From assembly GCF_022045235.1 (NCBI RefSeq), contig NW_027266286.1, forward strand, positions 1,319,856 to 1,383,855: a stretch of 64,000 nucleotides of DNA, given 5' to 3'. The position numbers and the translations under genes are program-made. This DNA is from Haliotis cracherodii. Its lineage: Eukaryota. Under the pieces are notes generated by a model. That model was not told where the DNA came from and searched no databases. It saw only the letters and a list, made by a program, of their open reading frames with translations. Shown here in pieces: positions 16,018 through 44,730 of this stretch (positions are counted from its first letter, which is position 1; each line of letters opens with the position of its first letter).

Positions 16018-16190
16018 CTAGCATCTGCTGGCTCCAGACACTGGGTCCTTGTCCAGCACACCGTTTGTCTCCCTTGGAGAGGATGGCGGGATGCATGCTG
16101 GGACTCCAGTGATGCTGAGCGTGGATCCAGCACCAAACTTCATGGGGATGTAGCCGTCGATGTTGGCACCAAGAACACAGGGGTCACCAT
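16018..16190 (-). CDS. Probable terminal coding exon (D-GDPCVLGANIDGYIPMKFGAGSTLSITGVPACIPPSSPRETNGVLDKDPVSGASRC*)
   Basis: Acceptor tatgttgtcag|; phase fits E12; in-frame TAG at 16018-16020; no convincing donor before the stop. Confidence 0.4.
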
Positions 16191-16577
16191 CTGACAACAT
16201 AGCAGGATAACAACACTATACAAACCAGTAGGACATTAACAACGGAAGCATGGAGCTAGCATGTTTAATAAGTGTTGATTATGAATAAAACAGCGTTGAT
16301 GGAAGGTCCAAATAATTAATTTAATTTTAACTTTACTCCTGACCTTATTTGACCCTTGATAACATGAAGGCAGGTCAATTGATAGTTGATATTTGTTGAT
16401 GTGTTTTGTGACCGTGACATATAAAAGTGAGGGACACATACAAAATCATGTGTCTACCTCTTGCACTATTGCAGAAAACTGATCCCAAGCCTGGAAGGGA
16501 GTTGAGGAGAAACGGGGCTTAACGTCGCATCCAAGATTATAGCACTTATATATCCACGTGCATGCACGTGTGTGTGT

Positions 16578-16809
16578 GGCTCCTTGTACTGAGATACCAT
16601 GCCGCAGTTTAACATGAATACCGCACACAGACACAGTATACTGACTCAGAGACAACCAGTCCTTGTTTTTGTCCCTTACTGCTGAGCGCCAGGCAGGTTA
16701 ACAACAAGTATCATCTTTTAACGTCTTTTGGTATAACGAGGACAGGGATTGAACCCCAGACCTTCCTCACTCTGGGCAGATGCTTTACGGCTAGACCACA
16801 GAGGTGGTC
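16578..16809 (-). mobile_element. SINE family D copy
   Basis: Consensus match. Confidence 0.6.
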
Positions 16810-16966
16810 ATTGGCTGTAAGTTACATGTTTGGTGACAAAAACAATATGTCTCCCCTCCCTTTGGGGTGGGAGAGGAAGACGTAATGGGGGAAACATTAA
16901 AACAATCCAACTGATCCCAGCCATGACTTGTGTGATGGCTGGCAGTGACAAGTCTGCCGTACTCAC

Positions 16967-17098
16967 CCATGATCAGCTCCACGGTGGCCAGACCGAACGC
17001 TTGTTTGACAGGGTCCAGCTGCAGTCTGCCGGTGTCCAACAGGAACGACCTTGTCAGCGTGTGGCCATCAGACGTCTCGTAGATAACCTTCACCTTCT
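16967..17098 (-). CDS. Exon E12 (E-KVKVIYETSDGHTLTRSFLLDTGRLQLDPVKQAFGLATVELIM)
   Basis: Acceptor tctctcag|, donor |GTGAGT; phase continuous. Confidence 0.6.
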
Positions 17099-17635
17099 CT
17101 GAGAGATACAAGAACAGAGTCCAGTTTCACAAACATCAAAACAAGGCAATAACAAATCTCTGAAACCTACTTCAATGACTTGAGGACACTGATACTAAGT
17201 GCTTTCATCAACCCGACAAAAACGGAATGTAAACTTGAAATGTTTCCTTACTCTAAACTATCAAACAGAAACTTTCTAGACATCATAGATATGCTCAATT
17301 TGTTTGAAGTGAGTCAGAGCTAATGTATCTTTGAACAGTATTTGAGCAACATGACAGAGTGTCAGCTTAATGTTGGAGGAGAGCCAACAGTGATGTAAAA
17401 GGTGGACTTTGAACAACATTTGAAAAAGCAAAGATCAGGGCATACACGGATCACTTGATGAGAACCATGATTAGCAGAACCTGACTCGGCCAAGGGGAGG
17501 TAACTCCCCACAGTTACTTGTGGTACTTTTGATCACTTGGCATCCAGCACCCCTTGGCTACAAACTTGCACAACTGATTTCGAAATGAAAGACGAAGGAC
17601 TCCCAAGTAGGAATTATTGAAAGACTGAAACTTAC

Positions 17636-17757
17636 CTGGTCTCTCGGGAGTCTGGTACTTGGTTGGGAATATACACGATGTATCTTCGACAGCTCTAGAA
17701 CAGATGGGAGGGACATTAATTACATCCTCCATCACCTCGACATCAGCTTGCTTCACA
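17636..17757 (-). CDS. Exon E11 (H-VKQADVEVMEDVINVPPICSRAVEDTSCIFPTKYQTPERP)
   Basis: Acceptor tatatatcctgag| lies inside the first unit of a 61-bp tandem repeat; donor |GTAAGT; phase continuous. Confidence 0.55.
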
Positions 17758-17942
17758 CTCAGGATATATATAACACTTTACACATTCAGATAACATCTTC
17801 AGATATTAGTGGTAGCTACTCAGGATACATATAACACTTTACACATTCAGATAACATCTTTAGAAATTAGTGGTAGCTACTCAGGATACATATAACACTT
17901 TACACATTCAGATAACATCTTCAGATATTAGTGGTAGCTACT
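17756..17942. repeat. 61-bp tandem repeat x3, starting at the E11 acceptor site
   Basis: ctcaggatacatataacactttacacattcagataacatcttcagatattagtggtagcta. Confidence 0.8.
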
Positions 17943-17984
17943 CAAACAGTCCATGTGTGGTTGGTAGGATAGACAAGTGGTTAT

Positions 17985-18245
17985 AGTGAGTGAGTGAGTT
18001 TGGTTTACAACCGCTTTTAACAATATTTCAGTTATATAACGGTATATCAGCTTAATGTTACAGGGAAGCTTGAAGTGATGCAGGTCTCAGACGTTTACCA
18101 CTTTGAAACCCACAAGCACAGGTATGGCGCTGACAAACCAAGAAACATAATCGGGACGAACTGGGATTCGAACCCACAATCACAGGGACACAACTCTGCA
18201 CAGTGAACTGCGGCCCCTTAGATGACTGGGCCACCCGTGCCCCCT
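17985..18245 (-). mobile_element. SINE family B copy (intronic)
   Basis: Consensus match. Confidence 0.7.
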
Positions 18246-18529
18246 AGTGGTTGTGTTGATTTATCTCACCAAAGACTGAGTTCTGTTACCTTTTGAGTCA
18301 AATGTGTCCCCCACATGCTTTAAGTTGAACAAACCCATGTACAGTCAACTACTGTTATATCGAACCCAAAGGGACCCGAATTGTAGTTTGTTAAAACCAT
18401 AGTTTGTTATAAGCATATATACAGCAAATGTCCGGGACCAAAAAATATATTTGTTATATCCGTCACTTCGTCATAAGCGTGTTTGTTAGAAACGTAGTTT
18501 ACTTCACCAAGTTAGAGATCCATACTTAC

Positions 18530-18576
18530 TGGGATAACACATCGATTTTCTTCTGCAATGCAGCAATCTGATCTTT
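18530..18576 (-). CDS. Exon E10 (KDQIAALQKKIDVLS-), short coiled-coil-like
   Basis: Acceptor tgtctttcag|, donor |GTAAGT; phase 0 to phase 2, completed by the first base of E11. Confidence 0.5.
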
Positions 18577-19230
18577 CTGAAAGACACAAGTAATAAACAA
18601 ATGATATTAATAACACCATGGGGAAAACACGTTTTCCAGTTCCTTGTTTATACTAGCACACCTGCAGGTGCCACATCAGTTTCAACACTGAATGAGTTAA
18701 AACACACTTAATGTTGCATCAGCATTATTCCAGCCATACAGCAAGGAAAAGTCTAAAACAGGAACTTATGCGAGTACTCTCTAACAGTTTACCCCCTGGG
18801 GATTCGGGGATCAAATTGGTCCCCATGTGTGTCGTATGGGGCATCTACATGGACCAGGTGACTTCGTTGATTATGTGTCATCGTACCACCAAGTGTGGGA
18901 GATTGATTGTACCAGTAATCACTGAACTGTCAACTGAAAAATGATGAAGTTGCATCTTCAGCAAACAAACAGTACTTGTGGATAACCTGCTGTATCATTC
19001 CTTCAGGTAATGTGTCATCAAGACTGACGTGAATCCTCTCCTCTCACTCCTCACCTCTTATCAGTATTTCTTCAAACAATTTTTCATAATATTAATCTTC
19101 ATACCGATATATATTAGTCAATCCCTAATTGTTTCACACTCTCAAGTGACAACCCTAACCCTAACCAATTGTAGTTTTAGTTTTATTTTATTATCAACAC
19201 TGAAACCTGATTAACCCAGACAGTTTCATA

Positions 19231-19445
19231 GTGCTAGCCCACTGAGGTCACATGTTGCAGTTTAACTTGGACACCCCACACAGACACCGTATATTACAAC
19301 GCACCAGTGCTTGTTTTAGCCCCTTAATGCCTAAAGCCAGACAGGGTAACATCAAGTACCATCTCTTAATGTCTATTGGTATGACATGGGGATCAAACAA
19401 CCCATCTTCTGCTCTCCTGGCAGACGCTCTAACAACCACACAACC
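19231..19445 (-). mobile_element. SINE family D copy (intronic)
   Basis: Consensus match. Confidence 0.6.
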
Positions 19446-19578
19446 AAATGATGGATCTGGGGCAATATCCTTTGTAAACATAGAGCATCCTAAGGTATAC
19501 AGCAGGGTTTCCAAGCTCGATTCCCTTCAGCTTACTCGGTGGAAACAATAAGACTTCGACTTAGTCTTGGATACTGAC

Positions 19579-20135
19579 CTGTGACCTGACAAGCATTGCC
19601 AGCTGGTCACAACCGGTTTCGTCTTGGCTGTCTACACTGGCGGAGTTGCCAGGATCGGAGAGGGAGTCCTCCATCACACAGCCATAATCCCTCTCCTCTC
19701 TCGTCGCACATTTCAGATCACTCGGCAAATCCAGCTCAATGTCCGTGGTCACACTGCGACACCCATTCACTCGGCCCCCATTGTCCACAGAATCAAAGAA
19801 CTTATCCACATGGGAATTCTGGAACTTGGGAGTCTGACTTGAAAATTGCACAGTTTCCGTTTCGAGATTTTCTGTCTTTCCATTAGCACCGAGGTCGACT
19901 ACAAGTCTATGGGTGTCCCCCCCATCTCTGGAAGACTGGGGGGGAGAGGGGACTGACATCTTGACATTACTAGCATAAGGAACATCCTCTGAAGGGGGGG
20001 TAACTCTGGACTTGGCAGGAGTCCTGGTAGGGAGGTTGGAGCCACTCAGACTCTTGATCTTCTGTTCTTGTTGCTTGGTGTCAGACGTCAAGTTGTTGGG
20101 CATCACAGAGTAACTATTACGAAGGTGAGATTTAT
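19579..20135 (-). CDS. Exon E9, large Ser/Pro-rich low-complexity exon (D-KSHLRNSYSVMPNNLTSDTKQQEQ..SPPQSSRDGG..CDQLAMLVRSQ)
   Basis: Acceptor ctttcag|, donor cacag|GTCAGT; 557 nt open frame, not repeat-derived; looks like a disordered linker. Confidence 0.6.
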
Positions 20136-20246
20136 CTGAAAGTTCAAAGAGTTATGCAGCTTTAACAGTGTGATAGGGAACCAACTCAAAGAGAAGCAGG
20201 TTATGCAAACTTTGGCCGTGTGATTCAAGCAGACAGATATCATTTT

Positions 20247-20480
20247 GTTTGTTTGTTCGTTTGTTGTTTAATGCCGCACTCAGCAATATTCCAGATATAT
20301 GACGGCGATCTGTCAAGTCTGGACCAGACAATCCAGTGATAGACATCATGAGCATCGATCCACACAATTTAGATATGATGACATGCATCAACCAAGTCAG
20401 CAAGCCTGAAAAACCTGATCCTGTAGGTCGCCTCTTATGACAAACATAGTCGCCTTTTACGGCAAGCATGGGTTGCTGCA
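20247..20480 (-). mobile_element. SINE family A copy (intronic)
   Basis: (TTTG)n tail + core ttgttgtttaatgccgcactcagcaatattccag + body. Confidence 0.7.
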
Positions 20481-20591
20481 GACAGAGATATTGGAATCAA
20501 ACTTCTGGAGAAGATGTCAATAAACAACTTTATATGACTGATATGCTACAGCAGTTACCATGACAACTACAGCGACACATCTATTTCTTAC

Positions 20592-20769
20592 CTATTTTGA
20601 TTGGGAAGTATCTGATGAGTAGTGTAAACCGTGCTTCATTAGTGGATGAAGGAAAAGCTGAATCAGCAATATCTCCCTCGCCAACCATCACCAGGACCCC
20701 AGAGTTTGTCTGGGCAAAGAGGGGGGGCAATCTACAGGATCCCTTGGGCCGCTGATGTTTCTCAAGTTG
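20592..20769 (-). CDS. Exon E8b (QLEKHQRPKGSCRLPPLFAQTNSGVLVMVGEGDIADSAFPSSTNEARFTLLIRYFPIKI)
   Basis: Acceptor atgtttcag|, donor |GTAAGA; required to restore phase between E8 and E9; flanked by SINE-A and SINE-C insertions in the introns. Confidence 0.55.
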
Positions 20770-20885
20770 CTGAAACATTGATGAATCAGTGACAGGTCTG
20801 GGCCAAGATGTTGGGAAGCCATTCTGACGTGACCCGTAACTTTATCTTATGTGCAGGAACATGTCAACACTGTGCTAGCTGAAGG

Positions 20886-21055
20886 GTGAGTGAGTGAATT
20901 TTGTTTAACGCCGCTTTTAGTACTATTCCAGCAATATTCCAGCAATATCACGGCGGGGGACACCATGAGCTTTACACATTGAACCAAATCGAGGAATCAA
21001 ACCCGGACCTTTAGCGTGAGGAGCGAATGCTTTAACCACTAGGCTAACCCACCAC
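20886..21055 (-). mobile_element. SINE family C copy (intronic)
   Basis: RC head gtggtgggttagcctagtggttaaagcattcgctcctcacgctaaaggtccgggtttgattcc is tRNA-like; shared core ..attccagcaatatcacggcggggg.. Confidence 0.65.
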
Positions 21056-21124
21056 ATCTGCTAGCTGAAGAGGACACTAGGATGAGTAAGGCTGTTACAG
21101 ACAAGGACAAAACAGAATACTCAC

Positions 21125-21220
21125 AATATCCGAAACTTTGTGTAACTCTTCACCCAGGAAGGTGAAGATCTGTAAGAGACTCTGGTTGTTGCTACCAACG
21201 ATGATGGAGTTGGTCCGGTG
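21125..21220 (-). CDS. Exon E8 (HRTNSIIVGSNNQSLLQIFTFLGEELHKVSDI)
   Basis: Acceptor ttttcacacag|, donor |GTGAGT; 96 nt, phase 0 to phase 0. Confidence 0.6.
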
Positions 21221-21317
21221 CTGTGTGAAAATATTAAAGAATTAAATACAGAGAACACATGCAGCGTGGAGGAACAGTAGAACACTGAGAGAAACTCCCA
21301 GCACTTCCGTCATCTGA

Positions 21318-21520
21318 TTGTTTGTTGTTTAACGCTGCAATTAGCACTATTCCAGCTATATGACGGAGGTCTGTAAATAATCTGGACCAGACAATCCAGT
21401 GATTGATATTGTGAACAATGTTCCACTCCACTGGGGTATGATGACATGTTACCATCACCAACACCAAGTCTGACCACCCGATCCCTTGGTCGCCACTTAC
21501 GAACATCATGGTGGGGTCTT
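21318..21520 (-). mobile_element. SINE family A copy (intronic)
   Basis: Consensus match. Confidence 0.65.
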
Positions 21521-21629
21521 GTTATCTCCTCGTATCTCCACAGGGCCAATTAATTAAATATGTCAGTTGCAAATGATCAAAATTTAAAAAAGCTGAAAAG
21601 AATGAGTATTTTTATAAATGTCCACCAAC

Positions 21630-21762
21630 CTCATGTGTAAGCACGTCTGGCACCAGGACGCCCCGGATGTTGGTTCGGCTGACTACGCTTGGATCCTGCA
21701 GCTTGTTGTGGAGTCGGATCACCACCAACTGGGACGTATCCTGCACCAGGCTCTGCACATCA
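21630..21762 (-). CDS. Exon E7 (SLVQDTSQLVVIRLHNKLQDPSVVSRTNIRGVLVPDVLTHE); donor position uncertain
   Basis: Stop-free frame and acceptor ..gatgtgcag|; the only available donor (gag|GTTGGT) is weak, so the 3' boundary is tentative. Confidence 0.4.
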
Positions 21763-21847
21763 CCATGGCAACACAATTTAATTCAACTTCAAAACCAGTA
21801 TTTGCCACTTTAGTTGTTTAACTACCGTGGTATCTCTACAGGTGAAG

Positions 21848-22335
21848 CACAAGACAATGGAGCCACGAGCTGGTAATGTTTCTAGGACAAGACAATGGAG
21901 CCACTAGCTAGTAATGTTTCTAGGCCAAGACAATGGAGCCACTAGCTAGTAATGTTTCCAGGCCAAGACAATGGTGCCACTAGCTAGTAATGTTTCTAGG
22001 ACAAGACAATGGTGCCACTAGCTGGTAATCTTTCTAGGACAAGACAATGGAGCCACTAGCTGGTAATCTTTCTAGGACAAGACAATGGTGCCACTAGCTG
22101 GTAATGTTTCTAGGACAAGACAATGGAGCCACTAGATGGTTATGTTTCTAGGACAAGACAATGGTGCCACTAGCTGGTAATGTTTCTAGGACAAGACAAT
22201 GGTGCCACTAGATGGTTATGTTTCTAGGACAAGACAATGGTGCCACTAGCTGGTAATGTTTCTAGGACATGACAATGGAGCCACTAGCTGGTAATGTTTC
22301 TAGGACAAGACAATGGTGCCACTAATGTTTCTATG
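21848..22335. repeat. 34-bp minisatellite, about 14 copies (intronic)
   Basis: ggacaagacaatgg(a/t)gccactagctggtaatgtttcta. Confidence 0.85.
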
Positions 22336-22360
22336 ATCAACCAGTTAGAGCTGATCCTAC

Positions 22361-22476
22361 CTGTGGATTTCTCTCCAGGTGCATGAGGCTATCCTTGACC
22401 GACACCTCTCTCCCTCTTGGGGCGATCACATCATCAGATCCGTTCATGGCACGGTCCTTGCTAGAGCTCACCACAT
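22361..22476 (-). CDS. Exon E6 (D-VVSSSKDRAMNGSDDVIAPRGREVSVKDSLMHLERNPQ)
   Basis: Acceptor tctatttcag|, donor cag|GTAGGA; phase continuous. Confidence 0.55.
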
Positions 22477-22973
22477 CTGAAATAGACGTTCACAATGACC
22501 TGCATTGTTCTTTAAATTCTTTTGAGTATTATATATGTCACATGATCTGAGTCTGGAGGAGACAAACCAGTGGATGACGGCATGAACAACATTCCACAAC
22601 AGTGATAACCACGTCACACTATGGTCCTATCTAAGTCAACTTTTACTACAAGCAAAATGACACATTCTGCTGAAAATATCTAAAATATCTAATCTAAAAT
22701 ACTGTATTTCCTCTAATAAGCACTCCTGCTTATTCTTTGCACCAAACCCCATGGATAAAAAGGCCTGACAGTAACTGGAGACCTGGCGTATAACATAAAA
22801 GATCAGAGGTGCTAAAACGGGATCCTTTATTACTAACCTTTCCTTTATTCCAGGCGAAATCTAACACACCCAATGCTCATAAGAGACCCTGTAGTTATTG
22901 TGGCTCTATTAGAGACCTATTATAGGAAATATGGTCATTTATATCTGCACAACAATGGTGTGGTGTTAAATAC

Positions 22974-23086
22974 CTGGCACAACAAACATATCTTGTTGTT
23001 TGCAGAGGGACTCCAAGGGCAACTCGGTCGCACACACAAGGGAATCACGGGACAGCGTCACGATGGAGGTGATGTTGCCGTCCAGG
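22974..23086 (-). CDS. Exon E5 (G-LDGNITSIVTLSRDSLVCATELPLESLCKQQDMFVVP)
   Basis: Acceptor tatgttgcag|, donor |GTATTT; phase continuous. Confidence 0.55.
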
Positions 23087-23206
23087 CTGCAACATATCAA
23101 CAAACATCCTCACTGCCGTGACTAGCATGAGCAAGGCAACACACACGTGGAACAATGACTCCACACAAGCATTGCTGCGATTAAGGCAGACACTGTTCGT
23201 GTGATA

Positions 23207-23420
23207 TTTGTTTGTTGTTGACCACATACTCGGCAATATTCCAGCTATATGACAACAGCCTGTAAACAATCAAATCTGGACCAGACAAACCAGTGATCGA
23301 TATTATGAGCACCACCCCTCACAATGGTGTAAAATGATTGTGGGGGTACCCAAGTCACAGAGTCTAACCTCCCGATGTATTTAGTCGCTGCGGACCTTTT
23401 CTAGCCCAGAATCCTAACAG
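23207..23420 (-). mobile_element. SINE family A copy (intronic)
   Basis: Consensus match. Confidence 0.65.
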
Positions 23421-24460
23421 GGGAAACGTGACAATGTTGACCGACTATGAAATGACATCACAATATTGATGACACGAAACCCAAGTACATATTAAGACAA
23501 CATTGTTATTAATTTTTCCTTATGACCTGTACTTTACTTAACGTCCAGTTTTACAAACAAGGTATTGATGACACTTCCAACACACAAACACAACTCCTGT
23601 TCTTCACTAAAACTAATAATCAAGTGAGGGTGACAAATAGATTATTACAGTGGTGTTAATTGTGTTTTATTGTATGATAAACAACTCCCACTCGTGTATT
23701 TCTCAAATACACAGATGCCAACTTGTTCTTAACAATGACATATATGACTTTTATTCCCCCTTTGGGTGCTGGAGTCAGTAAGTGGTACACTGTTGCAGCT
23801 TTCCACAACAAAATACAGGACCTTCTTATAGCTTATACACCAGTCTATTGTGTGCAAACAGTAAGGATGGTCTGTGGATGTAGGTCAACCCGATGAATGG
23901 ATGTTGACTGAAACATAACGTTTTATGTGGGATGTTGTACAGCTTGCACAGCAACACTCAATCCATAGGGGGATTATATACTACTGACTGGGAGAACCAC
24001 ATCTGGACGCCATTTGTCACTGTAAACTAGTCTACATATAGATTTCTGGATTTATAGTGTGCAGTATATATTATGTGTGTACTCTAGACCCTAACAAAGC
24101 TTTACACCAACAGTAACATGTCCATCTGAAACAACATTTTCATAAGATTTTTCAAAATCTTGTAAACATAGACTTTTTTTAATCAGCTGGTCTTCATAAC
24201 AGAAGCATCTTCCGATGTAAGTCATTCAAGGGGGCACAAAAATTATGATTGTAATAATTCATAAATACTTTTCATAATTAAAATGCTTTCTATAAACCTT
24301 GCTTTCATGACAGAAAACACACCTGTGGTACATAATAACACTGACACACACATTATCAAGACAACAGAGGCAGACCACATTTAATATAACTTGAACTGTG
24401 AGAACCACCCTAATGTACTGAGGACACAGTGAATCACCACCCTGGTTTCTGATGCCTTAC

Positions 24461-24528
24461 CCCGGGACCTTCCAGGCTGCAGGGGTGAAGTCCGACATGG
24501 ATGTCTCTATGTCTGGCCACATGTACAC
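24461..24528 (-). CDS. Exon E4 (VYMWPDIETSMSDFTPAAWKVP)
   Basis: Acceptor tgttccag|, donor |GTAAGG; phase continuous into E5. Confidence 0.55.
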
Positions 24529-24857
24529 CTGGAACACAGGTACATCACATACAAACTATTTCTACACAAAGATGAATATCAAACATAAAAACAGGCAAAC
24601 CGGTGGTTGATAGCATGAGCAATGGTTGCTGCAATCGGGTAGGATTTCACAAAATCACCCAGTCCTCCAGAAGGGGTATTGGAGACTTATTCTGCCCTTG
24701 AATACCTACAGGGGAACAAACACTGTCTGCTGGGGACCTATTCTGCCCAGGACCCCATGTTGTGTAATTCAGTATAAGATCAATCTAATTACAATCACAT
24801 CTTTACTCTGAGGTCCTGTCAGGTGACCTTTCTAATCAATGTCAAGGTTTCTTGGTA

Positions 24858-24993
24858 TGCGTGAGCGCAGTGAGTGTGTGAGTGAGTGAGTATGGTTTTA
24901 TGCCGCTTTTATCAATATTCCAGCAATATCATGGCGGGGGACACCAGACATGGGCTTCACACATTGTACCAATAACCACTAGGCTACTCCACA
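24858..24993 (-). mobile_element. SINE family C copy (internally deleted)
   Basis: Consensus match. Confidence 0.55.
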
Positions 24994-25454
24994 GCTAGGA
25001 GTGAGTACAGCCTTCAGACATAGCTGTTCTGCAACTCCACAACGACCCAAAATCTGGACTTCCAAATGCACAACAATCAAGGCAGCACTATGATACTGTT
25101 GTGGATATATCATACATCCTGTTATACGTCATGCCTCTACATCTACAGCCATGGCATATAATATCATGGTGTTCTGTGAGAGTTTTCTTTGGCTAAGGTC
25201 AAATTCCCAAAATTGAGCTGGTAAAGGAATGAAGCTGAACCATTTTCATTTTCAACGCCAAAAATCATAGGTCACGCCTACCAACGGACAGCTGTTTGCT
25301 GATTGGCTGACAATAGAGTGAGTGAGGCTTGTGTTACTGTGATTTCACTGGTCTCGTACTCTTGTCCACAGGTTTTGTGTTCATCACATGAACAGTCTGA
25401 GAAGCCATTATTGTTGACATATTTATTTATAAGAACTGACTTATGGAGTTTCTG

Positions 25455-25705
25455 TTTATTTGTTTGTTGTTTCGCCGCACTCAGCAATATGACATTGATC
25501 AGTAAATAATCGTTCTAGACCAGACAATCCAGTGATTTATATCATGAGAATCGATCTACACAACTGAGATATGATGACATGCATCAACCAAGTCAGCGAG
25601 CCTGACCACCAGATCCAATTAGTCGCCTCTTACGACAAGCATAGTCACCTGTTACAGCAAACATGGGTTGCTGAAGACCTATTCTAACCCGGATCTTCAC
25701 AGGTC
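25455..25705 (-). mobile_element. SINE family A copy, full length
   Basis: Consensus match including 5' end ..gggttgctgaagacctattctaacccggatcttcacaggtc. Confidence 0.7.
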
Positions 25706-25786
25706 CATGGCTTTTCTGTAGGTTTTTTTACACTTTTACCTACACAAACAAAAAGACAACATTAAATAGACAAGTGGAGGACTCAC

Positions 25787-25859
25787 CAGCACCACGGCGC
25801 CCACACACAGCACCAGCCTCTGTCCATCTTCCGACCACGTTCCGCAGGTGATCTTACCA
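25787..25859 (-). CDS. Exon E3 (S-GKITCGTWSEDGQRLVLCVGAVVL)
   Basis: Acceptor gtttcag|, donor |GTGAGT; WD-repeat-like TWSEDGQRLV; phase continuous. Confidence 0.6.
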
Positions 25860-27819
25860 CTGAAACACAGACAGAGAGCCCACAATATCAGCTGCTTCAC
25901 AGAACAGTGATTTTGACACAAAAAGCTGTATACAGTATACAAAACAACATTGCAAAAATAAGACATCATTACAGCATATATCCCGGGTAATGGGTTTTCG
26001 GACACTGAAGAAACAGTCATAGTATTCTCGCTGATCACATGAACAACTGTAAAACTTCTCATTCACTTATTCATAAAAGACAACTTTATCTTAGAATAAA
26101 GACATCATCTGAGTATTTACAATTTATGTGTGACACCTCTTGTTATAGTGCAAGTATTCGTGATAGAAAACGCATTATGTCCAAAAACCTATGATCCGAC
26201 GATAATACTTAATAGTATTGTATCATGAACAATAATAATAAAGGCTCTGATCGAAAGCAGGACAATCCGCGACGGCTGTCTGGAAACACGATATTTTCGG
26301 AGTATTTTTTATATTTTTACGAAGAAGATGACTCTTTCAGAGAACCGCTGTTTTCAAAAATGCAAATTTCAGCATTTTTGCAGAGATTTCACATTGCTAG
26401 ATCTAATTATTTACGTATTGAACAAATTGACCAGTCACCGTAGGGACTGCGCTACATGTATTTCGATTGCGAAAATGTAATGTTGACATTTAATAGTCAA
26501 ATTGCCTCAAATATGACTTTAAATGAGTCAAGGTATGGCATTTATGATATGTGTCCATTCTCTTGCAACTAAAGTTAGTTTCAAGGCGTCAATAGCGGTA
26601 ATCTGACCGTGGTTGCTGTAAATAATGGTGAGTTGTGCGATCTACCGATCACTTCGCATACATTTCACCAAAATTATTATGATTATTGAATGAAATTTTT
26701 AATAAAATTCAAACATAAGTCCAGATAAACAATGAACACCTTTTTATAACCAGATATTATAATAGGATTAAATTGCATACTTCAGTTCAGATTAGTTGAC
26801 TGGTATTTCCGGTGTTACATGATTGCGTTGATCAGCTAATAATGTTTTTTGAGATGGGGAAAAACATTGTGTCATTGGAAAACTTAAGTTTATTAAAAAC
26901 GTAAGTAAATTTTGGGAGCCATGCTTCACCGCCTGCTATAACCGAATTAGGGCTATTATTGAAGAACACCCACTGTATCTGATGCTGAAAGCTCTGATTG
27001 AAAACAGGACAATATGTGTACTGTACATCCTCTCGATGGGCACTAAACTTTATGAGAGCATTAAAATCGATGGTGCCAAATCAATACCTTAAGTGGAATA
27101 ATCCTTACTATTTACTATTTAATCATGAAATTATGACGCATGTGACGCCTTGCTTAGCATTTCTATCGGTCAAAAGTATGACAACTTAAACAAACCATCG
27201 GTCAAATAGAAAGTTAATCTGTCTATGACCGGTAACCGAAACCCTGCAGAACAACCATCCCTTGCCATTGTACAAGCTCCCAGGAATCACACCATGACAT
27301 GTGACAAGTTATTTACAACTGATTAGTGATTAGAAATTTGGCTAAATTTCAAAGCAATTCTATATGATAATTGAAAATAAACATCCACAGTAGTGACAGG
27401 TTTCTATCTATAATGCAGAAATTCTGTCATCTATTTCCTCTAGAAAACTTAAGAGGAATTTAATTGAGGAAATAAAATAATATTCTCCAACTTATCAGAT
27501 CGTGCTATTTCTGTTTGAATAGCTGATGCATTAGTCAGACTACAAAAATTTATTACCATGACGACCTTGAATATTTAAAGGTCAAGATAAATATTTACTT
27601 AATCACCATGCTATGCGGAAATTGGTTCTGAAATGAATTCTAAATGTTCCTGTTATCCGACAAATCATTTCATTATGAGATTTAATTGCTGAAAGCTGTC
27701 AGAGGATCAGACTTAATCACACAGTCATCCAGGTGCAGGGGGAGGAAATGAAACTATTGGCGGCCATGCTGGTTCATGCACGGGTTCACACACGCTGCCG
27801 AGTGCATTGATGCCGCTGA

Positions 27820-27972
27820 ACGTTGGACTTTACGCCATTTTGAGCATCGTTTTAGCAACATCATTGCAGGTGACACCAGAAGTGGGCTTCACAGATAGCA
27901 CCCATGTAGGGAAGTGAACACAGACATTTGATGTGACGAGCAAATGCTTTACCCACTAGGCTACCTCACCAA
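27820..27972 (-). mobile_element. SINE family C-like copy
   Basis: Partial consensus match. Confidence 0.45.
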
Positions 27973-28139
27973 CACAATTGTAACACAACACGTGATTCAT
28001 GAAACAACAATCATTATTTGGCCACTATTACCAATACACTGTATAATTCAGACATGAGACAATGTCTTGTTAACTGAAATAATATGGACAAGAGCAAAGC
28101 TAATGAGGGTCACTTCAAGATTGTGTTGTGTACTTCATG

Positions 28140-28577
28140 GGAGGGGTGAGTTTGAATGGGAGGGTCAGTTTGAGGGGAGGGGTCAGAGTGAAGGGAGGTA
28201 AGTTTGAGGGGAGGGGTCAGACTGAAGGGTGGTCAGACTGATGGTAGGGGTCAGTTGGAGGGGGGGTCAGATTGAGGGGAATGGGTCAGAAAGAGGGGAG
28301 GTTCAGTTTGAAGAAAGGGGTTAGACTGATGGGAGGGGTCAGATTGAGTGGAGGGGTCAGATTGAGGGGAAGGGTCAGACTGAGGGGAGGGGTCAGACTG
28401 ATGGGAGGGGTCAGACTGATGGGAGGGGTCAGACTGATGGAAGGGGTCAGATTGAGTGAAGGGTCAGACTGATGGGAGGGGTCAGATTGAGGGGAGGGGT
28501 CAGACTGATGGGAGGGGTCAGATTGAGTGAAGGGTCAGACTGATGGGAGGGGTCAGACTGATGGAAGGGGGCAGATT
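28140..28577. repeat. 21-22-bp G-rich minisatellite (gaggggaggggtcagactgat), about 20 copies; continues at 28869-28900 after the SINE insertion
   Basis: Direct read. Confidence 0.8.
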
Positions 28578-28868
28578 GAGTGAGTGAGTGAGTGAGTGAG
28601 TTGCATTTCACGCCGCTTTTAACAGTATTCCAGTTATATCACAACGTGTCAGCTTAATGTGGGTGGAAAGCCCGAAGTGATGCAGGTCTCAGACGTTTAC
28701 CACCTCGGTGAAATCCACGAGCACGGGTATGGTGCTGACAAACCTAGAAACATAATCGTGGCGAACCGGGATTCGAACCCACAATCATAGGTTTCTGGCA
28801 TGCCCAAGGGACGCAACTCTGCACAGCGAATCGCGGCGCCTTAGACGACTGGGCCACCAGTTTCCCCG
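28578..28868 (-). mobile_element. SINE family B copy inserted into a 21-22-bp minisatellite, flanked by cagattgag(tg) direct repeats
   Basis: Consensus match; the satellite resumes after the insertion. Confidence 0.7.
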
Positions 28869-28910
28869 TCAGATTGAGTGGAGGGGTCAGATCGTGGCTA
28901 ATGAACTAAC

Positions 28911-29028
28911 CTTTCGAGCTGAGGGAAGGCATAGCTGCTCTTGTTGTGAAGATGTCGGAAGTAGAAGCTGCACTGTTGTTGACTCAGCAGACACAAGATG
29001 TCCTCCTTCTTGGGGTGCCACAGACAGC
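28911..29028 (-). CDS. Exon E2 (G-CLWHPKKEDILCLLSQQQCSFYFRHLHNKSSYAFPQLE)
   Basis: Acceptor tgtgttgtggcag|, donor |GTTAGT; the only stop-free frame is phase-compatible with E1 and E3; lies between a SINE-B and a 23-bp satellite. Confidence 0.5.
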
Positions 29029-29051
29029 CTGCCACAACACACAGAACACAT

Positions 29052-30592
29052 GTGACGGTCTAAGTAACTGTTACGTGGCATTCTATGTAAGAGTCACATG
29101 ATGGCCTAAGTAACAGTCATATTACAGTCGAAGTAACACAGTTATGTGATGGTCTAAGTAACACATTCATGTGATGGTCTAAGTGACAGTCATGTGATGG
29201 TCTAAGTAACAGGTATGTGATGGTCTAAGTAACAGTGATGTGACGGTCTAAGTTACAGTCACATGATGGTCTAAGTAACAGTCACTTGATGGTCTAAGTA
29301 ACAGTCACTTGATGGTCTAAGTAACATTCATGTGATGGTCTAAGTAACAGTCATGTGATGGTCTAAGTAACAGTCATGTGATGGTCTAAGTAACAGTCAT
29401 GTGATGGTCTAAATAACAGCTATGTGATGGTCTAAGTAACACATTCATGTGATGGTCTAAGTGACAGTCATGTGATGGTCTAAGTAACAGGTATGTGATG
29501 GCCTAAGTAACACAGTGATGTGAAGGTCTAAGTTACAGTCACATGATGGTCTAAGTAACAGTCACTTGATGGTCTAAGTAACAGTCACTTGATGGTCTGA
29601 ATAACATTCATGTGATGGTCTAAGCTAAGTAAAACAGTTATGATACGGTCTAAGTAACAGTTATGTGATTGTCTAAGGAACAGTCATGTGATGGTCTAAA
29701 TAACAGCTATGTGATGGTCTAAGTAACAGTCATGTGATGGTCTAAATAACAGCTATGTGATGGTCTAAGTAACAGTCATGTGATGGTCTAAGTAACAGTC
29801 ATGTGATGGTCTAAGTAACAGTCATGTGACAGTCTAAGTAAAACAGTTATGATACGGTCTAAGTAACAGTTATGTGATGGTCTAAGTAACAGTCACATGA
29901 TGGTCTAAGTAACAGTCATGTGATGGTCTAAGTAACAGTCATTTGATGGTCTAAGTATCACAGTTATGTGACGGTCCAAGTAACAGTCATGTCATGTGAT
30001 GGTCTAAGTAACAGCTATGTAATGGTCTAAGGAACAGTCATGTGATGTGATGGTCTAAGTAACAGTCATTCGATGGTCTAAGTATCACAGTTATGTGACG
30101 GTCCAAGTAACAGTCATGTCATGTTATGGTCTAAGTAACAGTCATGTGATGGTCTAAGTAGCACATTGATGTGATGGTCTAAATGACAGTCACATGATGG
30201 TCTAAGTAACAGTCATGTGATGGTCTAAGTAACACAGTAATGTGGTGTTCTAAGTAACAGTCACATGATGGTCTAAGTAAGTCATGTGACAGTCTAAGTA
30301 ACAGGCATGTGATGTGACGGTCTAAGTAACACATTCATGTGATGGTCTAAGTTACACAGTGATGTGACGGTCTAAGTTATACAGTCATGTGACGATCTAA
30401 GTAACAGTCATGTGATGGTCGAAGTAACAGTCATGTGATAGTCTAAGTCACAGTCATGTGACGGTCTAAGTGACAGTCATGTGACGGTCTAAGTGACAGT
30501 CATGTGACAGTCTAAGTGACATCATGTGACGGTCCAAGTGACAGTCCTGGACGGTCTAAGTAACACATTCATGTGATGGTCTACGTAACACA
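29052..30592. repeat. 23-bp minisatellite (gtgatggtctaagtaacagtcat), about 65 copies
   Basis: Direct read. Confidence 0.9.
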
Positions 30593-30890
30593 GCCATATC
30601 AGGGTATAGCCCTGTTGGGATTCTAGGTTAGAATTGGTCACATGCATGTTGAAAATGCATTTGGTGGTCCAACTCTGTTGACTGTATGTCACCGTAACCC
30701 AACGTTGCAAATATCATCAATCACATGTTTGTCTGGACTCTACAATCCATGATCACATGAGTGGAATATTGCAGTGACAACAAGAAACAAACAAACAAAT
30801 CTCGGTGTAAGCATCGCAGTCTTGCCCCAGTGTTGGCATCCGAGTCTGGACCAGACAAACCACTGATGACAGCAGGAGCACAAGAGCCCA

Positions 30891-31345
30891 ACTTACCAAG
30901 GCAAGGGAGTTAACTGACTATAAAAGTCCAGTTTCCACCCTTGCTGAACTAGGCTGGAATTTCTGAGTCATATTTTGGCTGGACTAACGAGTTTATGCAT
31001 AGTCAAATCAAAATTTGTGTAAACAACACAGTGACTGACGTGCAGATTTCTGTTGGTTGCAAGATGGCAAAGCATGTGTACAGTCAACTGGGCGTCAAGA
31101 TCTTTTCATGTTTTAATCAACATACTCAAGTGATTTGATGAACTTCAGGAGGTTAGACCTGTTATAGTACAACATAGATCTTGATTATCGCTCCGATCAT
31201 CTTGACTGGGCGCCGCCATTTTGTTTGGAGCAAATGCAAGTGATATGAGAGGTGGAATCTGATTGGTCAATAGGAGGGACATAGAAGGGAAGTAACTCAT
31301 AATAGCCACTGGTGGCGCTACAATGGAGACACAAAATTTCAGCCA
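30891..31345. mobile_element. MITE family 2 copy, right end degraded, no satellite expansion
   Basis: About 85% identity to 54250-54640; single ggagggacatagaagggaag where copy 2 has the array. Confidence 0.55.
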
Positions 31346-31383
31346 AGTCTTAATAATCTTCAACAATCCCTAGACAAACTTAC

Positions 31384-31544
31384 CTTGGGGAATGGGTTGC
31401 ACATTAAGTTTGCGGACTTGCTTGAATCCTAGTTTTGGAGCCAACCCTGTGACTTTCCACACTGTGACATTCTGCCGGTGGATGGCACACAGGAAGCAGG
31501 TGTCGCCGTCCACGTCCCCGCTCCAGTGAAGGCTCCTCACGTTG
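31384..31544 (-). CDS. Exon E1 of minus-strand WD40-repeat gene (..NVRSLHWSGDVDGDTCFLCAIHRQNVTVWKVTGLAPKLGFKQVRKLNVQPIPQ)
   Basis: Acceptor tgtgtgtttgcag| and donor |GTAAGT read on the minus strand; open frame with a WD-repeat-like motif (..W.SGDVDGDT..VTVWKV); the end phase matches the next exon. Confidence 0.6.
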
Positions 31545-32027
31545 CTGCAAACACACAAAAATAGGGACATGTAAAATAGGGACACTGGTAAGTGGGTATA
31601 CGTGCTACAAGACAGGTGTGATGAAAACGCTGAGAACCAACATCTTCAGTTCATAAATAATCAGGTCTGGGTATGGCTGGGCTACCAAGGAGAGACGGCA
31701 TCAGCAACGATCCTAGCCTTTAGGACATCAGTCGAGTCATCCTACATTGTGCCTACACAATCCTCACTTTAGTTGGCTGAGATTCGAGTGTGTAGCCACA
31801 TCAGTCATTCTTTCCTAATAAATGACATTCGATCAACACGTTCATTTGAGCAAGTGACCTTTTTTGAAATGTGCCTCTGTTCATACAGCAGTGAATGGGT
31901 ACCCGGTAGGATGAGATGGCAAAGTGGTGGTAACCTTCAAATGCCTAACAGGCAGCTTGGGTTGTATACTCCCCAGGGAGCTGCGAATTATTGTTGAGTG
32001 CATGGAGTACAGCAAATATAAATGGAC

Positions 32028-32393
32028 TACCGTATTCAATGTAATAAACGCTCAGGGTGCTCTCAAAATTAGAAATAGGGGGCTCTTATTAGAACATAAT
32101 TTTGGTGAGATAAAAAACTTTGTGGTTTATGCTGACAGCCTGAAATGATATAAAAGAAGAATCTGTGCGTATTATATACGATAGATATATTTTCGAGAAT
32201 TTAATTGCCCATAATTAAGGGTGCATATAACACATGAGTGCGTATTATACACGAATAAATAAGTCTTGTGTACATTGATCAGTTGGAAGGGGTACTAATT
32301 GGGATTGTTCACTAGCCAATATACATGATATATTAGCAAATATCGCCGTAGGTGCTTATTAGAGCGGGGCGCTTATTACGTTGAATACGGTAT
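32028..32393 (+). mobile_element. MITE family 3 copy (TIR CCGTATTCAATGTAATAAACGC), TA-flanked
   Basis: Terminal inverted repeats; TA on both flanks. Confidence 0.65.
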
Positions 32394-32552
32394 TATTGTT
32401 CATTATTATAACTGATTAACAATTTCAGTTGACAGTTTGAGGTAGCCTAACAGACAGGGTGTTCACTTGTCACACAACTACTCGTGGTTTGATTCCTGTC
32501 ACTGGCACAATGAGTCCCCCAGCTGTCATAAGATTATCATCCCTGACCCAAT

Positions 32553-35282
32553 ACAACACAATACTTGTGTGTAGAAACAGCCATGTCCTGATCACACAGT
32601 GTGAGCAGTATACCCAGGACAACGTCTGTAACACAATACTTGTGTAGAAACAGCCATGTCCTGATCACACAGTGTGAGCAGTAAACACAGGACAACGCCT
32701 GTAACACAATACTTGTGTAGAAACAGCCATGTCCTGATCACACAGTGTGAGCAGTAAACACAGGACAACGTCTGTAACACGATACTTGTGTGTAGAAACA
32801 GCCATGTCCTGATCACACAGTGTGAGCAGTATACACAGGACAACGCCTGTAACACAATACTTGTGTGTAGAAACAGCCATGTCCTGATCACACAGTGTGA
32901 GCAGTAAACACAGGACAACGCCTGTAACACAATATTTGTGTAGAAACAGCCATGTCCTGATCACACAGTGTGAGCAGTAAACACAGGACAACGCCTGTAA
33001 CACAATATTTGTGTAGAAACAGCCATGTCCTGATCACACAGTGTGAGCAGTATACACAGGACAACGCCTGTAACACAATACTTGTGTGTAGAAACAGCCA
33101 TGTCCTGATCACACAGTGTGAGCAGTAAACACAGGACAACGCCTGTAACACAATATTTGTGTAGAAACAGCCATGTCCTGATCACACAGTGTGAGCAGTA
33201 AACACAGGACAACGCCTGTAACACAATATTTGTGTAGAAACAGCCATGTCCTGATCACACAGTGTGAGCAGTAAACACAGGACAACGCCTGTAACACAAT
33301 ACTTGTGTAGAAACAGCCATGTCCTGATCACACAGTGTGAGCAGTATACACAGGACAACGCCTGTAACACAATACTTGTGTAGAAACAGCCATGTCCTGA
33401 TCACACAGTGTGAGCAGTAAACACAGGACAACGCCTGTAACACAATACTTGTGTAGAAACAGCCATGTCCTGATCACACAGTGTGAGCAGTAAACACAGG
33501 ACAACGCCTGTAACACAATACTTGTGTAGAAACAGCCATGTCCTGATCACACAGTGTGAGCAGTAAACACAGGACAACGTCTGTAACACAATACTTGTGT
33601 AGAAACAGCCATGTCCTGATCACACAGTGTGAGCAGTAAACACAGGACAACGCCTGTAACACAATACTTGTGTAGAAACAGCCATGTCCTGATCACACAG
33701 TGTGAGCCGTAAACACAGGACAACGCCTGTAACACAATACTTGTGTAGAAACAGCCATGTCCTGATCACACAGTGTGAGCAGTAAACACAGGACAACGCC
33801 TGTAACACAATACTTGTGTAGAAACAGCCATGTCCTGATCACACAGTGTGAGCAGTAAACACAGGACAACGCCTGTAACACAATATTTGTGTAGAAACAG
33901 CCATGTCCTGATCACACAGTGTGAGCAGTAAACACAGGACAACGCCTGTAACACAATACTTGTGTAGAAACAGCCATGTCCTGATCACACAGTGTGAGCA
34001 GTAAACACAGGACAACGTCTGTAACACAATACTTGTGTAGAAACAGCCATGTCCTGATCACACAGTGTGAGCAGTAAACACAGGACAATGCCTGTAACAC
34101 GATACTTGTGTGTAGAAACAGCCATGTCCTGATCACACAGTGTGAGCAGTAAACACAGGACAACGCCTGTAACACAATACTTGTGTAGAAACAGCCATGT
34201 CCTGATCACACAGTGTGAGCAGTAAACACAGGACAACGCCTGTAACACAATACTTGTGTAGAAACAGCCATGTCCTGATCACACAGTGTGAGCAGTAAAC
34301 ACAGGACAACGTCTGTAACACAATACTTGTATGTAGAAACAGCCATGTCCTGATCACACAGTGTGAGCAGTAAACACAGGACAACGCCTGTAACACATTA
34401 CTTGTATGTAGAAACAGCCATGTCCTGATCACACAGTGTGAGCAGTAAACACAGGACAACGTCTGTAACACAATACTTGTATGTAGAAACAGCCATGTCC
34501 TGATCACACAGTGTGAGCAGTAAACACAGGACAACGCCTGTAACACGATACTTGTGTGTAGAAACAGCCATGTCCTGATCACAGTGTGAGCAGTAAACAC
34601 AGGACAACGCCTGTAACACAATACTTGTGTAGAAACAGCCATGTCCTGATCACAGTGTGAGCAGTAAACACAGGACAACGCCTGTAACACAATACTTGTG
34701 TAGAAACAGCCATGTCCTGATCACACAGTGTGAGCAGTAAACACAGGACAACGTCTGTAACACAATACTTGTATGTAGAAACAGCCATGTCCTGATCACA
34801 CAGTGTGAGCAGTAAACACAGGACAACGCCTGTAACACGATACTTGTGTGTAGAAACAGCCATGTCCTGATCACAGTGTGAGCAGTAAACACAGGACAAC
34901 GCCTGTAACACAATACTTGTGTAGAAACAGCCCTGTCCTGATCACAGTGTGAGCAGTAAACACAGGACAACGCCTGTAACACAATACTTGTGTAGAAACA
35001 GCCATGTCCTGATCACACAGTGTGAGCAGTAAACACAGGACAACGCCTGTAACACGATACTTGTGTGTAGAAACAGCCATGTCCTGATCACACAGTGTGA
35101 GCAGTAAACACAGGACAACGCCTGTAACACAATATTTGTGTAGAAACAGCCATGTCCTGATCACACAGTGTGAGCAGTAAACACAGGACAACGTCTGTAA
35201 CACAATACTTGTGTAGAAACAGCCATGTCCTGATCACAGTGTGAGCAGTATACCCAGGACAACGCCTGTAACACAATACTAC
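32553..35282. repeat. 73-bp satellite, about 37 copies (2.7 kb)
   Basis: acacagtgtgagcagtaaacacaggacaacgcctgtaacacaatacttgtgtagaaacagccatgtcctgatc; periodic 62-aa spurious ORFs. Confidence 0.9.
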
Positions 35283-35439
35283 CAGGAACACAACTGCTGC
35301 CATATGCTGCCGTAATTTAACCCTCACAGCGTACTGACAAATCAAGGTCTGTGTCTTTATGGTCTTTGACTGATAACTGGCAGCAATTATCAGTGTACAT
35401 GAAGAATTACCCCCACAAACTAACATGCGATTGGGTTTG

Positions 35440-35640
35440 TATCGTCATTCGTTGTTTAACACCAATATTCCAGATACACGACTATTGTCGACAAATTATC
35501 AAGTCTGGTCCAGACAATCCAGTGGCCCAGTGAGCATCAATCCATATATGCAATTGGGACACGATGACACACAATCAACCAGGTTCTCAAGCCTGACCAC
35601 ACAAACCATTTAGCCGTCTCTTATGTATTCTTACCCAGCA
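35440..35640 (-). mobile_element. SINE family A copy (diverged)
   Basis: Consensus match. Confidence 0.55.
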
Positions 35641-36555
35641 TCCCCATGGGTTGGGGTTGGGGGGTTGAGGGGTTGGGGGGTTGAGGGGTTTGGGTTGGGG
35701 TTGGGGTCGGGAGTTCAGGTTCTGTGATTAAGCTGACATTGTACGTGTCATTGAACCTGGTCATTATGGATCGTTGCTTATGCTATCAATCACTGGTTTA
35801 CCTGCTCCAACTAATTACAAGCAGATACAGTGTTTCCCTTCTCCGGTGTATATACTGGATATTAACCTGTTAAATATTTCTGGGATGGGTAAACTTTAGG
35901 TCTGACGGTCCCTGTGTCCGCCACAAATTTCCACTGAATAATGCACATCATATCCTGTGTATCGCTGCAAACATTAAATCACTTAAAAAGCTGGCGTTTC
36001 AATTTTCGGCAACATTCTGGCATTAAAATTCAAAAAGTATATGAACCTATTAAACCTATTCACAAAATATGAATGATTTTCAAATTATAATGTGCACATT
36101 ACTTTACTCTTCCCTCACATCATGATACAGGCACCAAAAGTCTGAATGACGACGGAATATTCTGACAGACGGATTAACTAAACGATGAGTTGATTTGTCA
36201 TGGTATCCAAATGTTTCTCATCAATTAAATTTCCATCACATGCTGAAATGATGACAGTTTATGAAGAACATCATCAGGAACAAAGAAAACCTGGACTCAA
36301 CCAGCAGCTTCACTGAGGCGGACTCGACTGTACTTTTAAGTGGTAATCCCAGACACAAGACTAGCTACAATCCCCATCTCAAGGTTTTCTTCAGTGGTCA
36401 ACGTGACCTGTAATCCTCTTTGTCAAAACCGGGGAGTGTCAACAAAAGTAAAAAGCATGCCAAGCACTACATCAGGTAACTTTGCAAACATTAATATGAT
36501 TTAAAAAAGGTCACTTTGACCTATTTGACATGCCCATAGAAAACAACTGACAGTC

Positions 36556-36808
36556 CGACCGACAGACAGACAGATAGGCAGACAGACAGACAGACAGACA
36601 GACATACATACAGACAGACAGACAGACAGACAGACAGATATGCAGACAGGCAGACAGATAGACGGACAGACAGATAGGCAGACAGACAGACAGATAGGCA
36701 GACAGACAGACAGATAGGCAGACAGACAGACAGATAGGCAGACAGACAGACAGACAGACAGACAGGCAGACAGACAGACAGATAGGCAGCCAGACAGGCA
36801 GACAGACC
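36556..36808. repeat. (CAGA)n / (CAGACAGG)n microsatellite
   Basis: Direct read. Confidence 0.9.
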
Positions 36809-37439
36809 AAACTGTGTTCTTTAGACCTCAGGCTCATAACACAAACAAGATGGAAAAAATAAATAAATTTACATGCTGAATAAATGGCGGGAGAACAACA
36901 CTAGATGTTATAGGGATAAATGTCTTGCTTGTAATCTTTAGTACGTGACAATTAAATCAAACATTTATAATATGGATATTGTTTGTTGACATCAGTCTTG
37001 CAAAGAAAACAGTTGAGATTGTGTACATCAAGCATTGATCAGGCTGAAGTGCTGACAGCTTAACACTTGCCAGCACACACACGGGGAGAAACAATGGCAA
37101 GGACAGTATATGACGGACACCTGGTGCTAATCTCAACATTTCAAATCCTGACATGGAGATGATCAAACACAAATACTGATGGATACATATTTCCATGTCT
37201 GAAACTACGCCTATTTTCCTGTCTGACGAGGAGGTCAGTGAAACTTTGTTCTTGCCTGCTGGTTGGCTAACAGGTTGTATTTTCCAACCATCACGTTATG
37301 ATTGATTTTTGATACATGATATGTCGGATATAAATTTCACAAAATGTTACAACTGCCTCACACAACACAGTGAACAAATACTGAAAGCTGGCGGCATTCG
37401 CTTGGTGGTTGTTGAAGCAGTGCAACAGGTGTAGAGAGG

Positions 37440-38150
37440 CTGGCCCAGTCAGACTGATTGCTTAGACTGTACCTAGTCTCCTGACTGCATCAGCTCCTGA
37501 GTATAACATATAGACTAAACCCAGTCTCCTCACTGGAGCATCAGCTATTGAGTATAATATATAGACTAAATCCAGTCTCCTGACTGCAGCATCAGCTATT
37601 GAGTATAATATATAGACTAAATCCAGTCTCCTGACTGCAGCATCAGATGTTGAGTATAACATATAGACTGTACCTAGTGTTTAGCATCAGCTCCTGAGTA
37701 TAAGAGATATAGACTGCATCCAGTCTCACAACTGAAACATCAGCTACTGGATACAACAGATATAGACTGTACCCAGTCTCTTGACTGAAGCATCAGCTAT
37801 TGAGTATAACAAATAAACTGGACCCAGACTCCCAATGGAGCCATCAGCTATAGAGTATAACACTAATAATAAACAAACCTGCAGTATGAGAGCTACAGGG
37901 GTCACATAGACTGTACCCAGTCTCCTGACTGCAGTATCAGCATAGAGTATAACATACAGACTGTACCCAGTCTCCTGACTGCAGCATCAGCTATTGAGTA
38001 CAACATTGTTAATGAACAAACCTGCAGTATGAGAGCAACAAGGGAGCACATAGACTGTACCCAGTCTCCTGACTGAAGCATCAGCTATTGAGTACAACAT
38101 TGCTAATGAACAAACCTGCAGTAAGAGCTAGGGTACAAAGGGTTAACTAT
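37440..38150. repeat. Complex minisatellite (~57-bp units, then ~120-bp units)
   Basis: tagactaaatccagtctcctgactgcagcatcagctattgagtataa variants. Confidence 0.7.
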
Positions 38151-44689: not shown

Positions 44690-44693
44690 TGTA

Positions 44694-44730
<37 letters not shown>

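Follow-up and report, generated by a model that had tools for sequence, protein, structure and literature searches.

A WDCP ortholog with repeat-laden introns on the minus strand of a 64-kb stretch of the Haliotis cracherodii genome

The window analyzed here is a stretch of 64,000 nucleotides (nt) from the black abalone Haliotis cracherodii (NCBI RefSeq assembly GCF_022045235.1, contig NW_027266286.1, positions 1,319,856 to 1,383,855), and coordinates are positions in this window unless a H. rufescens locus is named. It is eukaryotic DNA with a GC content of about 43%, rich in tandem arrays and in short dispersed repeats. The gene on its minus strand is almost certainly the already annotated abalone ortholog of WDCP, a protein with a predicted propeller, linker, helix and C-terminal beta domain, and the introns of the gene are laden with repeats. 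A sequence-only reading had placed a gene with many exons, coding for a WD-repeat-type protein, on the minus strand at 16018-31544, and this was borne out by an independent tblastn model and by identity to an annotated protein.

The gene model was built by a tblastn search of the window with the protein of H. rufescens isoform X2, and the splice sites were then read at each boundary. Residues 19-728 of the H. rufescens protein, i.e., all but amino acids 1-18, were placed in order on the minus strand in 15 blocks. In total, 15 of the 16 coding exons are located in the window, running from 48751 down to 16018, and all 14 introns between them are of the GT-AG type with the frame kept at each junction. 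The coding sequence, which closes with a TAG stop codon, comprises 2133 nt if the single base contributed by the absent first exon is counted. Each exon listed below is based on a tblastn block and on splice sites in continuous phase, and each has a counterpart in H. rufescens.

48752..64000, minus strand, in-window part of intron 1; the ATG exon lies beyond the window
48634..48751, minus strand, coding exon 2 (amino acids 19-57 of the full-length protein), acceptor ttgcag, donor gtatgt; outside the span of the sequence-only reading
31545..48633, minus strand, intron 2 (17.1 kb) with large tandem arrays inside
31384..31544, minus strand, coding exon 3, containing HWSGDVDGDT...VTVWKV
28911..29028, minus strand, coding exon 4 (tblastn and splice sites)
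25787..25859, minus strand, coding exon 5, GKITCGTWSEDGQRLV, matching positions 156-177 of the Pfam WDCP profile
24461..24528, minus strand, coding exon 6 (tblastn and splice sites)
22974..23086, minus strand, coding exon 7 (tblastn and splice sites)
22361..22476, minus strand, coding exon 8, coding for an insert in the propeller that is predicted to be disordered
21630..21752, minus strand, coding exon 9, with the weak donor GTTGGT; phase 0/0, continuous with the next exon
21125..21220, minus strand, coding exon 10 (tblastn and splice sites)
20592..20769, minus strand, coding exon 11 (tblastn, splice sites and Pfam scan of open stretches)
19579..20135, minus strand, coding exon 12 (557 nt), source of the disordered Ser-rich linker and of the first part of the long helix
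18530..18576, minus strand, coding exon 13, coiled-coil segment KDQIAALQKKIDVLS, donor inside a Gln codon (CA followed by gtaagt)
17636..17694, minus strand, coding exon 14 (tblastn and splice sites)
16967..17098, minus strand, coding exon 15, coding for the conserved C-terminal beta domain, matching positions 637-668 of the Pfam WDCP profile
16018..16190, minus strand, terminal coding exon 16, with the TAG stop codon at 16018-16020

The sequence-only reading had counted 14 exons in 16018-31544. This number is exact, and so are both ends of the span, 31544 being the first base after the AG and 16018 the last base of the TAG. The canonical AG/GT dinucleotides reported for all junctions were confirmed, and the coordinates of an "extra" exon at 20592-20769 are correct to the base. 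The short coiled-coil exon (18530-18576), which forms a helix in the structural model, and the terminal exon with a stop codon (16018-16190, TAG) were found as described. The 5′ end, which had been placed beyond 31.5 kb or outside the window, extends to the exon at 48634-48751 and to an ATG exon outside. The donor of the exon at 21630-21752, the seventh in the earlier count, is indeed weak (GTTGGT), but no phase break exists there and the exon joins the next one in phase 0. An exon described as coding for 185 Ser/Pro-rich amino acids corresponds to the 557 nt at 19579-20135, whose product is rich in Ser (14%) but not in Pro (6.5%); it also contains 9% Asp. The product length of 770 amino acids has to be corrected, as the 14 exons together comprise 2014 nt and code for 671 amino acids.

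The spliced product of 710 amino acids is identical to residues 19-728 of the H. cracherodii protein XP_071113391.1 (710 of 710 positions, gap-free). Because of this identity, the gene call is not due to chance, and since the product matches an annotated protein in full, the gene was already known. The sole difference from XP_071113391.1 is the first 18 codons, which are located beyond the window, and both represent the same gene. On the full product, the Pfam scan gave a match to PF15390 (WDCP) with 223.8 bits versus a cutoff of 25.3 (expectation value E = 5.5e-66), in which profile positions 19-233 are matched by the N-terminal stretch. Minus-strand open stretches in 16018-31544 contain the motifs quoted in the sequence-only reading, and the first Pfam scan, carried out on six of these stretches, had yielded three independent WDCP matches in colinear order (profile positions 156-177, 382-425, and 637-668). 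The profile match is colinear along the protein, from the propeller to the C-terminal conserved block. Below the threshold, the only Pfam echoes on the full product were the propellers of aladin and IFT140. The splicing of the exons and the domain search suggested in the sequence-only reading therefore ended with a match to WDCP (PF15390), unmatched WD40 and Lgl profiles, and an ortholog named WDCP.

When the open stretches were roughly joined and used as a protein query, 18 homologs were retrieved, and PF15390 was present in 18 of 18. Those with a named source are from molluscs or an annelid, and most of them are called WDCP-like; the best one is from H. rufescens. All named homologs among the 18 are WDCP-like or unnamed proteins. 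The product is 84-85% identical to the proteins of H. asinina and H. rubra.

For the comparison with H. rufescens, the gene of XP_048239358.1 / XP_046335582.2 on JALGQA010000048.1 was used, taking the locus of the longest isoform. This locus spans 79.5 kb with WDCP as the sole called gene, and the window is colinear with it from about 8 kb to 64 kb. The WDCP-like proteins of the two species are 98.0% identical and differ by 14 amino-acid substitutions. The H. rufescens gene has 16 coding exons too, and matching AG/GT dinucleotides were found for 15 of the 15 window exons, including the weak donor of exon 9. Exon lengths are equal for 14 of these 15 exons, the exception being exon 12 with a difference of 30 nt: the H. 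rufescens exon (locus 84380-84966) contains a 30-nt tandem duplication coding for TREERDYGCV, of which a single copy is present in the window at 19579-20135. The same duplication separates isoform X1 of H. rufescens from isoform X2. Intron 1 is longer by about 26 kb in H. rufescens (locus 20682-47068, compared with window position 56588/56598), and this difference is a large lineage-specific insertion or deletion. The exons are 96-100% identical between the species, compared with about 90-95% for unique intron DNA. By the Nei-Gojobori method, the synonymous divergence (dS) is 0.064 and the nonsynonymous divergence (dN) is 0.010, resulting in a dN/dS of 0.16, and the gene is therefore under purifying selection.

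The acceptor of exon 2 falls inside codon 19, and therefore one further coding exon must exist. This first coding exon is predicted to read ATGGAGCTG... and to code for MELGRSTLRGNGLNLLLN plus one base (G followed by gt). In H. rufescens the ATG exon is located 43 kb upstream of exon 2, and position 64000 of the window corresponds to position 13726 of the H. rufescens locus, which is 3.7 kb short of that exon. By colinearity, the ATG exon of H. cracherodii would thus be expected about 3.7 kb past position 64000.

The structure of the protein was predicted with AlphaFold2 from an alignment of 19 sequences, with residues numbered as in the model. Residues 1-390 of the model contain 28 beta-strands arranged as seven four-stranded blades, with a predicted local distance difference test score (pLDDT) of 80-92 over most of the blades and a disordered loop inserted into them at 208-257. 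No structure is predicted for residues 392-561 (pLDDT <50), which represent the Ser-rich acidic linker of about 170 residues from exon 12. The coiled-coil segment forms a single helix of 33 residues (562-594), followed by a compact beta-rich domain at 611-684 with a pLDDT of around 80-85. The invariant columns of the family alignment are clustered in two regions, namely the propeller and the C-terminal domain.

A Foldseek search of the model against the PDB gave 930 matches at E ≤ 0.001, of which the best 50 are all beta-propeller proteins with 7-13% identity. The matches listed include mLST8, G-beta, coronins, alpha-COP, WIPI, Nup214, aladin, DDB1, and Lgl2, and the E-values versus WD40 proteins are about 1e-7 to 1e-8. 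Searching the PDB sequences with the family profile yielded no significant match (best E = 0.026). The modeled N-terminal 390 residues share the fold of generic seven-bladed WD40-type propellers such as G-beta, mLST8, coronin, and aladin, and weak sequence echoes of aladin are found in the abalone product. Unlike WDCP, however, these generic propellers have neither the additional coiled coil nor the C-terminal domain. Compared via the family profile, vertebrate WDCP (human C2orf44, PF15390) has the plan of propeller, linker, coiled coil, and C-terminal domain in common with the abalone protein, whereas the central linker is not conserved between them.

To our knowledge, WDCP is poorly characterized in every animal. 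The human protein is reported to oligomerize through its coiled coil and to be phosphorylated by Src-family kinases, and its oligomerization would account for its occurrence in fusions with ALK. Yokoyama and Miller are said to have described it in 2015 as an Hck substrate that oligomerizes. By its architecture, and in line with this human work, the abalone protein may act as a self-associating scaffold. Oligomerization would be driven by the helix at 562-594, partner proteins could dock on the propeller and on the C-terminal domain, and the linker might bear phosphorylation sites or SH3-type contact sites. In colorectal cancer, human WDCP (C2orf44) is known as a fusion partner of ALK (PMC4695188, citing Yokoyama & Miller 2015).

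Several points weigh against the identification and the role outlined here. The splicing of the model rests on homology and splice-site logic, and a search of all window frames for the 18 codons of the ATG exon gave no minus-strand match of at least 8 of 18. The AlphaFold2 model reaches a mean pLDDT of only 63, owing to predicted disorder in about 37% of the residues. The WD40 repeat profile PF00400 gave no match at E ≤ 1 on the full product. Finally, the scaffold or kinase-substrate mechanism is extrapolated from one vertebrate study. The window lacking an ATG exon, the weak GTTGGT donor of exon 9, and the heavily repeat-colonized introns would also be in agreement with a pseudogene in decay or with open frames that line up by chance. 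However, the frame is open over 2133 nt and 15 exons with canonical splice sites throughout, the weak donor and every exon boundary are conserved in H. rufescens, and the colinearity described above places the missing ATG exon about 3.7 kb past the window end. Together with the dN/dS of 0.16 and the higher identity of the exons than of the introns, this makes such decay or chance highly improbable, and it was rejected due to the open frame, the purifying selection, and the conserved boundaries.

The sequence-only reading had also noted a resemblance to Lgl/tomosyn-type proteins (lethal giant larvae family) that might be due to chance. Such a family assignment could draw on Lgl2 (9ejl_A), which ranked second in the Foldseek search of the PDB (E = 2.4e-08), but this match is one of 930, with 11% identity and template modeling scores (TM-scores) of 0.23-0.28, and the other matches listed beside it are generic propellers (G-beta, mLST8, coronin, COPA, WIPI). 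No Lgl/tomosyn Pfam family (LLGL, Lgl_C) was matched at E ≤ 1 on the full product, compared with 224 bits for WDCP, and the model consists of one propeller of about 390 residues and a disordered linker, whereas Lgl has two propellers. The names of the homologs argue against this family as well. With no Lgl profile match, a single propeller, and a resemblance common to any two propellers, the assignment was rejected and has next to no probability; the resemblance is not specific. The protein could alternatively be a strict canonical WD40-repeat protein, with PF00400-type repeats and GH/WD signatures and no narrower family, for which "WD repeat" in the family name, the seven four-stranded blades of the model, and WD40 proteins as the top structural neighbors can be cited. 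This is scarcely credible either, given the lack of a PF00400 match, the absence of any "WD" dipeptide in the product (Trp occurs as WT, WS, WK, WH, and WP), and the specific family model PF15390, which extends from the propeller to the C-terminal end of the protein. The earlier designation as a WD40 protein hence holds for the fold, as modeled with seven blades and by the Foldseek propellers, but not for the sequence profile: in the model, "WD40" fits the fold and the family name, and the canonical repeat signature is absent from the sequence.

The introns of this WDCP ortholog contain tandem arrays and three families of dispersed repeats, the latter identified by self-BLAST and alignments. 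The dispersed copies amount to 24 linked segments across the window, and the elements of the first two families are short (<500 bp) with a simple-repeat tail. The first family is a tRNA-derived short interspersed nuclear element (SINE) with a consensus of about 279 bp, the box B GGTTCGAATCC, a (CTCA)n tail, and a head that is conserved in the alignment; the criterion for tRNA derivation was the RNA polymerase III box B motif GGTTCGAnnCC inside a tRNA-like head. Exact GGTTCGAATCC sites occur four times in the window, all within copies of this SINE, compared with 0.05 expected by chance. Family A, with a consensus of about 247 bp and an (ACAA)n tail, lacks a recognizable tRNA head, and "SINE-like" is therefore the safest label for it. 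The third family has a box-B-like GGTTCAATCC. No intact tRNA was detected in the window by ARAGORN, and the Rfam gathering scan gave nothing in the window. In 16018-31544, eight SINE-like copies with a length of 100 bp or more and 5 fragments were found, all in gene orientation, and four distinct arrays were detected by Tandem Repeats Finder. The earlier estimate of at least 8 SINEs thus stands, while that of 5 satellite arrays was one too high. The eight copies and the arrays of this span, followed by the arrays of intron 2 (detected with the same software), are:

28589..28867, minus strand, full-length tRNA-derived SINE in intron 4, with box B GGTTCGAATCC and (CTCA)n tail
17987..18244, minus strand, tRNA-derived SINE copy in intron 13 (family alignment)
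25454..25686, minus strand, SINE-like family A copy in intron 5 (family alignment)
20251..20483, minus strand, SINE-like family A copy in intron 11 (family alignment)
21315..21502, minus strand, SINE-like family A copy in intron 9 (family alignment)
23207..23311, minus strand, partial family A copy in intron 6 (family alignment)
19241..19382, minus strand, copy of the third dispersed family in intron 12, with box-B-like GGTTCAATCC
16588..16734, minus strand, copy of the third dispersed family in intron 15 (self-BLAST and alignment)
29049..30590, no strand, 23-bp tandem array with 65 copies in intron 3; orthologous array in H. rufescens
28137..28580, no strand, 18/71-bp tandem array in intron 4
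21849..22324, no strand, 38-bp tandem array with 12.5 copies in intron 8; orthologous in H. rufescens
17757..17944, no strand, 61-bp tandem array with 3.1 copies in intron 13
32555-35280, array of 73 bp x37 in intron 2
36549-36807, (GACA)n array in intron 2
37463-38100, array of 51 bp x11 in intron 2
40146-43446, GC-rich (55-58% GC) 28/56-bp minisatellite of 3.3 kb with about 118 copies in intron 2

Among the arrays checked, those of 38 bp, 23 bp, 73 bp, and 28 bp are at orthologous positions in H. rufescens and differ in copy number. The GC-rich 28/56-bp minisatellite is present at the orthologous H. rufescens site with about 80-87% identity. Furthermore, intron 1 contains seven arrays between 49723 and 62528, namely 24 bp x27 (49723-50386), 38 bp x22 (51019-51843), 23 bp x55 (52424-53676), 20 bp x36 (54618-55329), 22 bp x6 (57275-57415), 83 bp x10 (58575-59413), and 21 bp x26 (61975-62528), and due to these arrays long spurious open reading frames (ORFs) appear in a six-frame listing. 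In the gene region (16018-64000), SINE-like insertions of at least 100 bp are strongly biased toward the sense orientation, with about 12 on the minus strand versus 3 on the plus strand. Minisatellite arrays and SINE-like retroposons have built up passively in the long introns, which is common in mollusc genomes. It is highly improbable that the arrays at orthologous positions (dS of about 0.06 apart) or the sense bias of the SINE-like insertions reflect a function, e.g., in the regulation of splicing or chromatin of this very long gene, and not neutral persistence.

Downstream of the gene, debris of transposable elements was found at 5154-6918 and 8568-8858. It includes an ORF on the minus strand (5778-6110) with a retroviral-type integrase C-terminal domain (PF22938, E = 7e-11), which was the only match above the cutoff in Pfam scans of the ORFs at 1-13 kb. 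A C2H2-like ORF is located at 5154-5645, and a plus-strand ORF of 185 amino acids (6361-6918) looks tyrosine recombinase-like by eye and has no Pfam match. About 6 kb downstream of the stop codon, a 109-bp tandem repeat occurs in two blocks (9138-9925 and 10271-10504; 93-96% matches), and this repeat is also present in the downstream flank of H. rufescens.

The gene model is a correct manual prediction of a known gene in the NCBI annotation and shows nothing unusual for a mollusc gene. Splice sites and phases read by eye recovered the true 14-exon model with exact boundaries, to which the follow-up adds the name of the ortholog. Although the gene is already in the NCBI annotation, a clean invertebrate WDCP gene model together with a fold prediction is mildly useful for comparative work.

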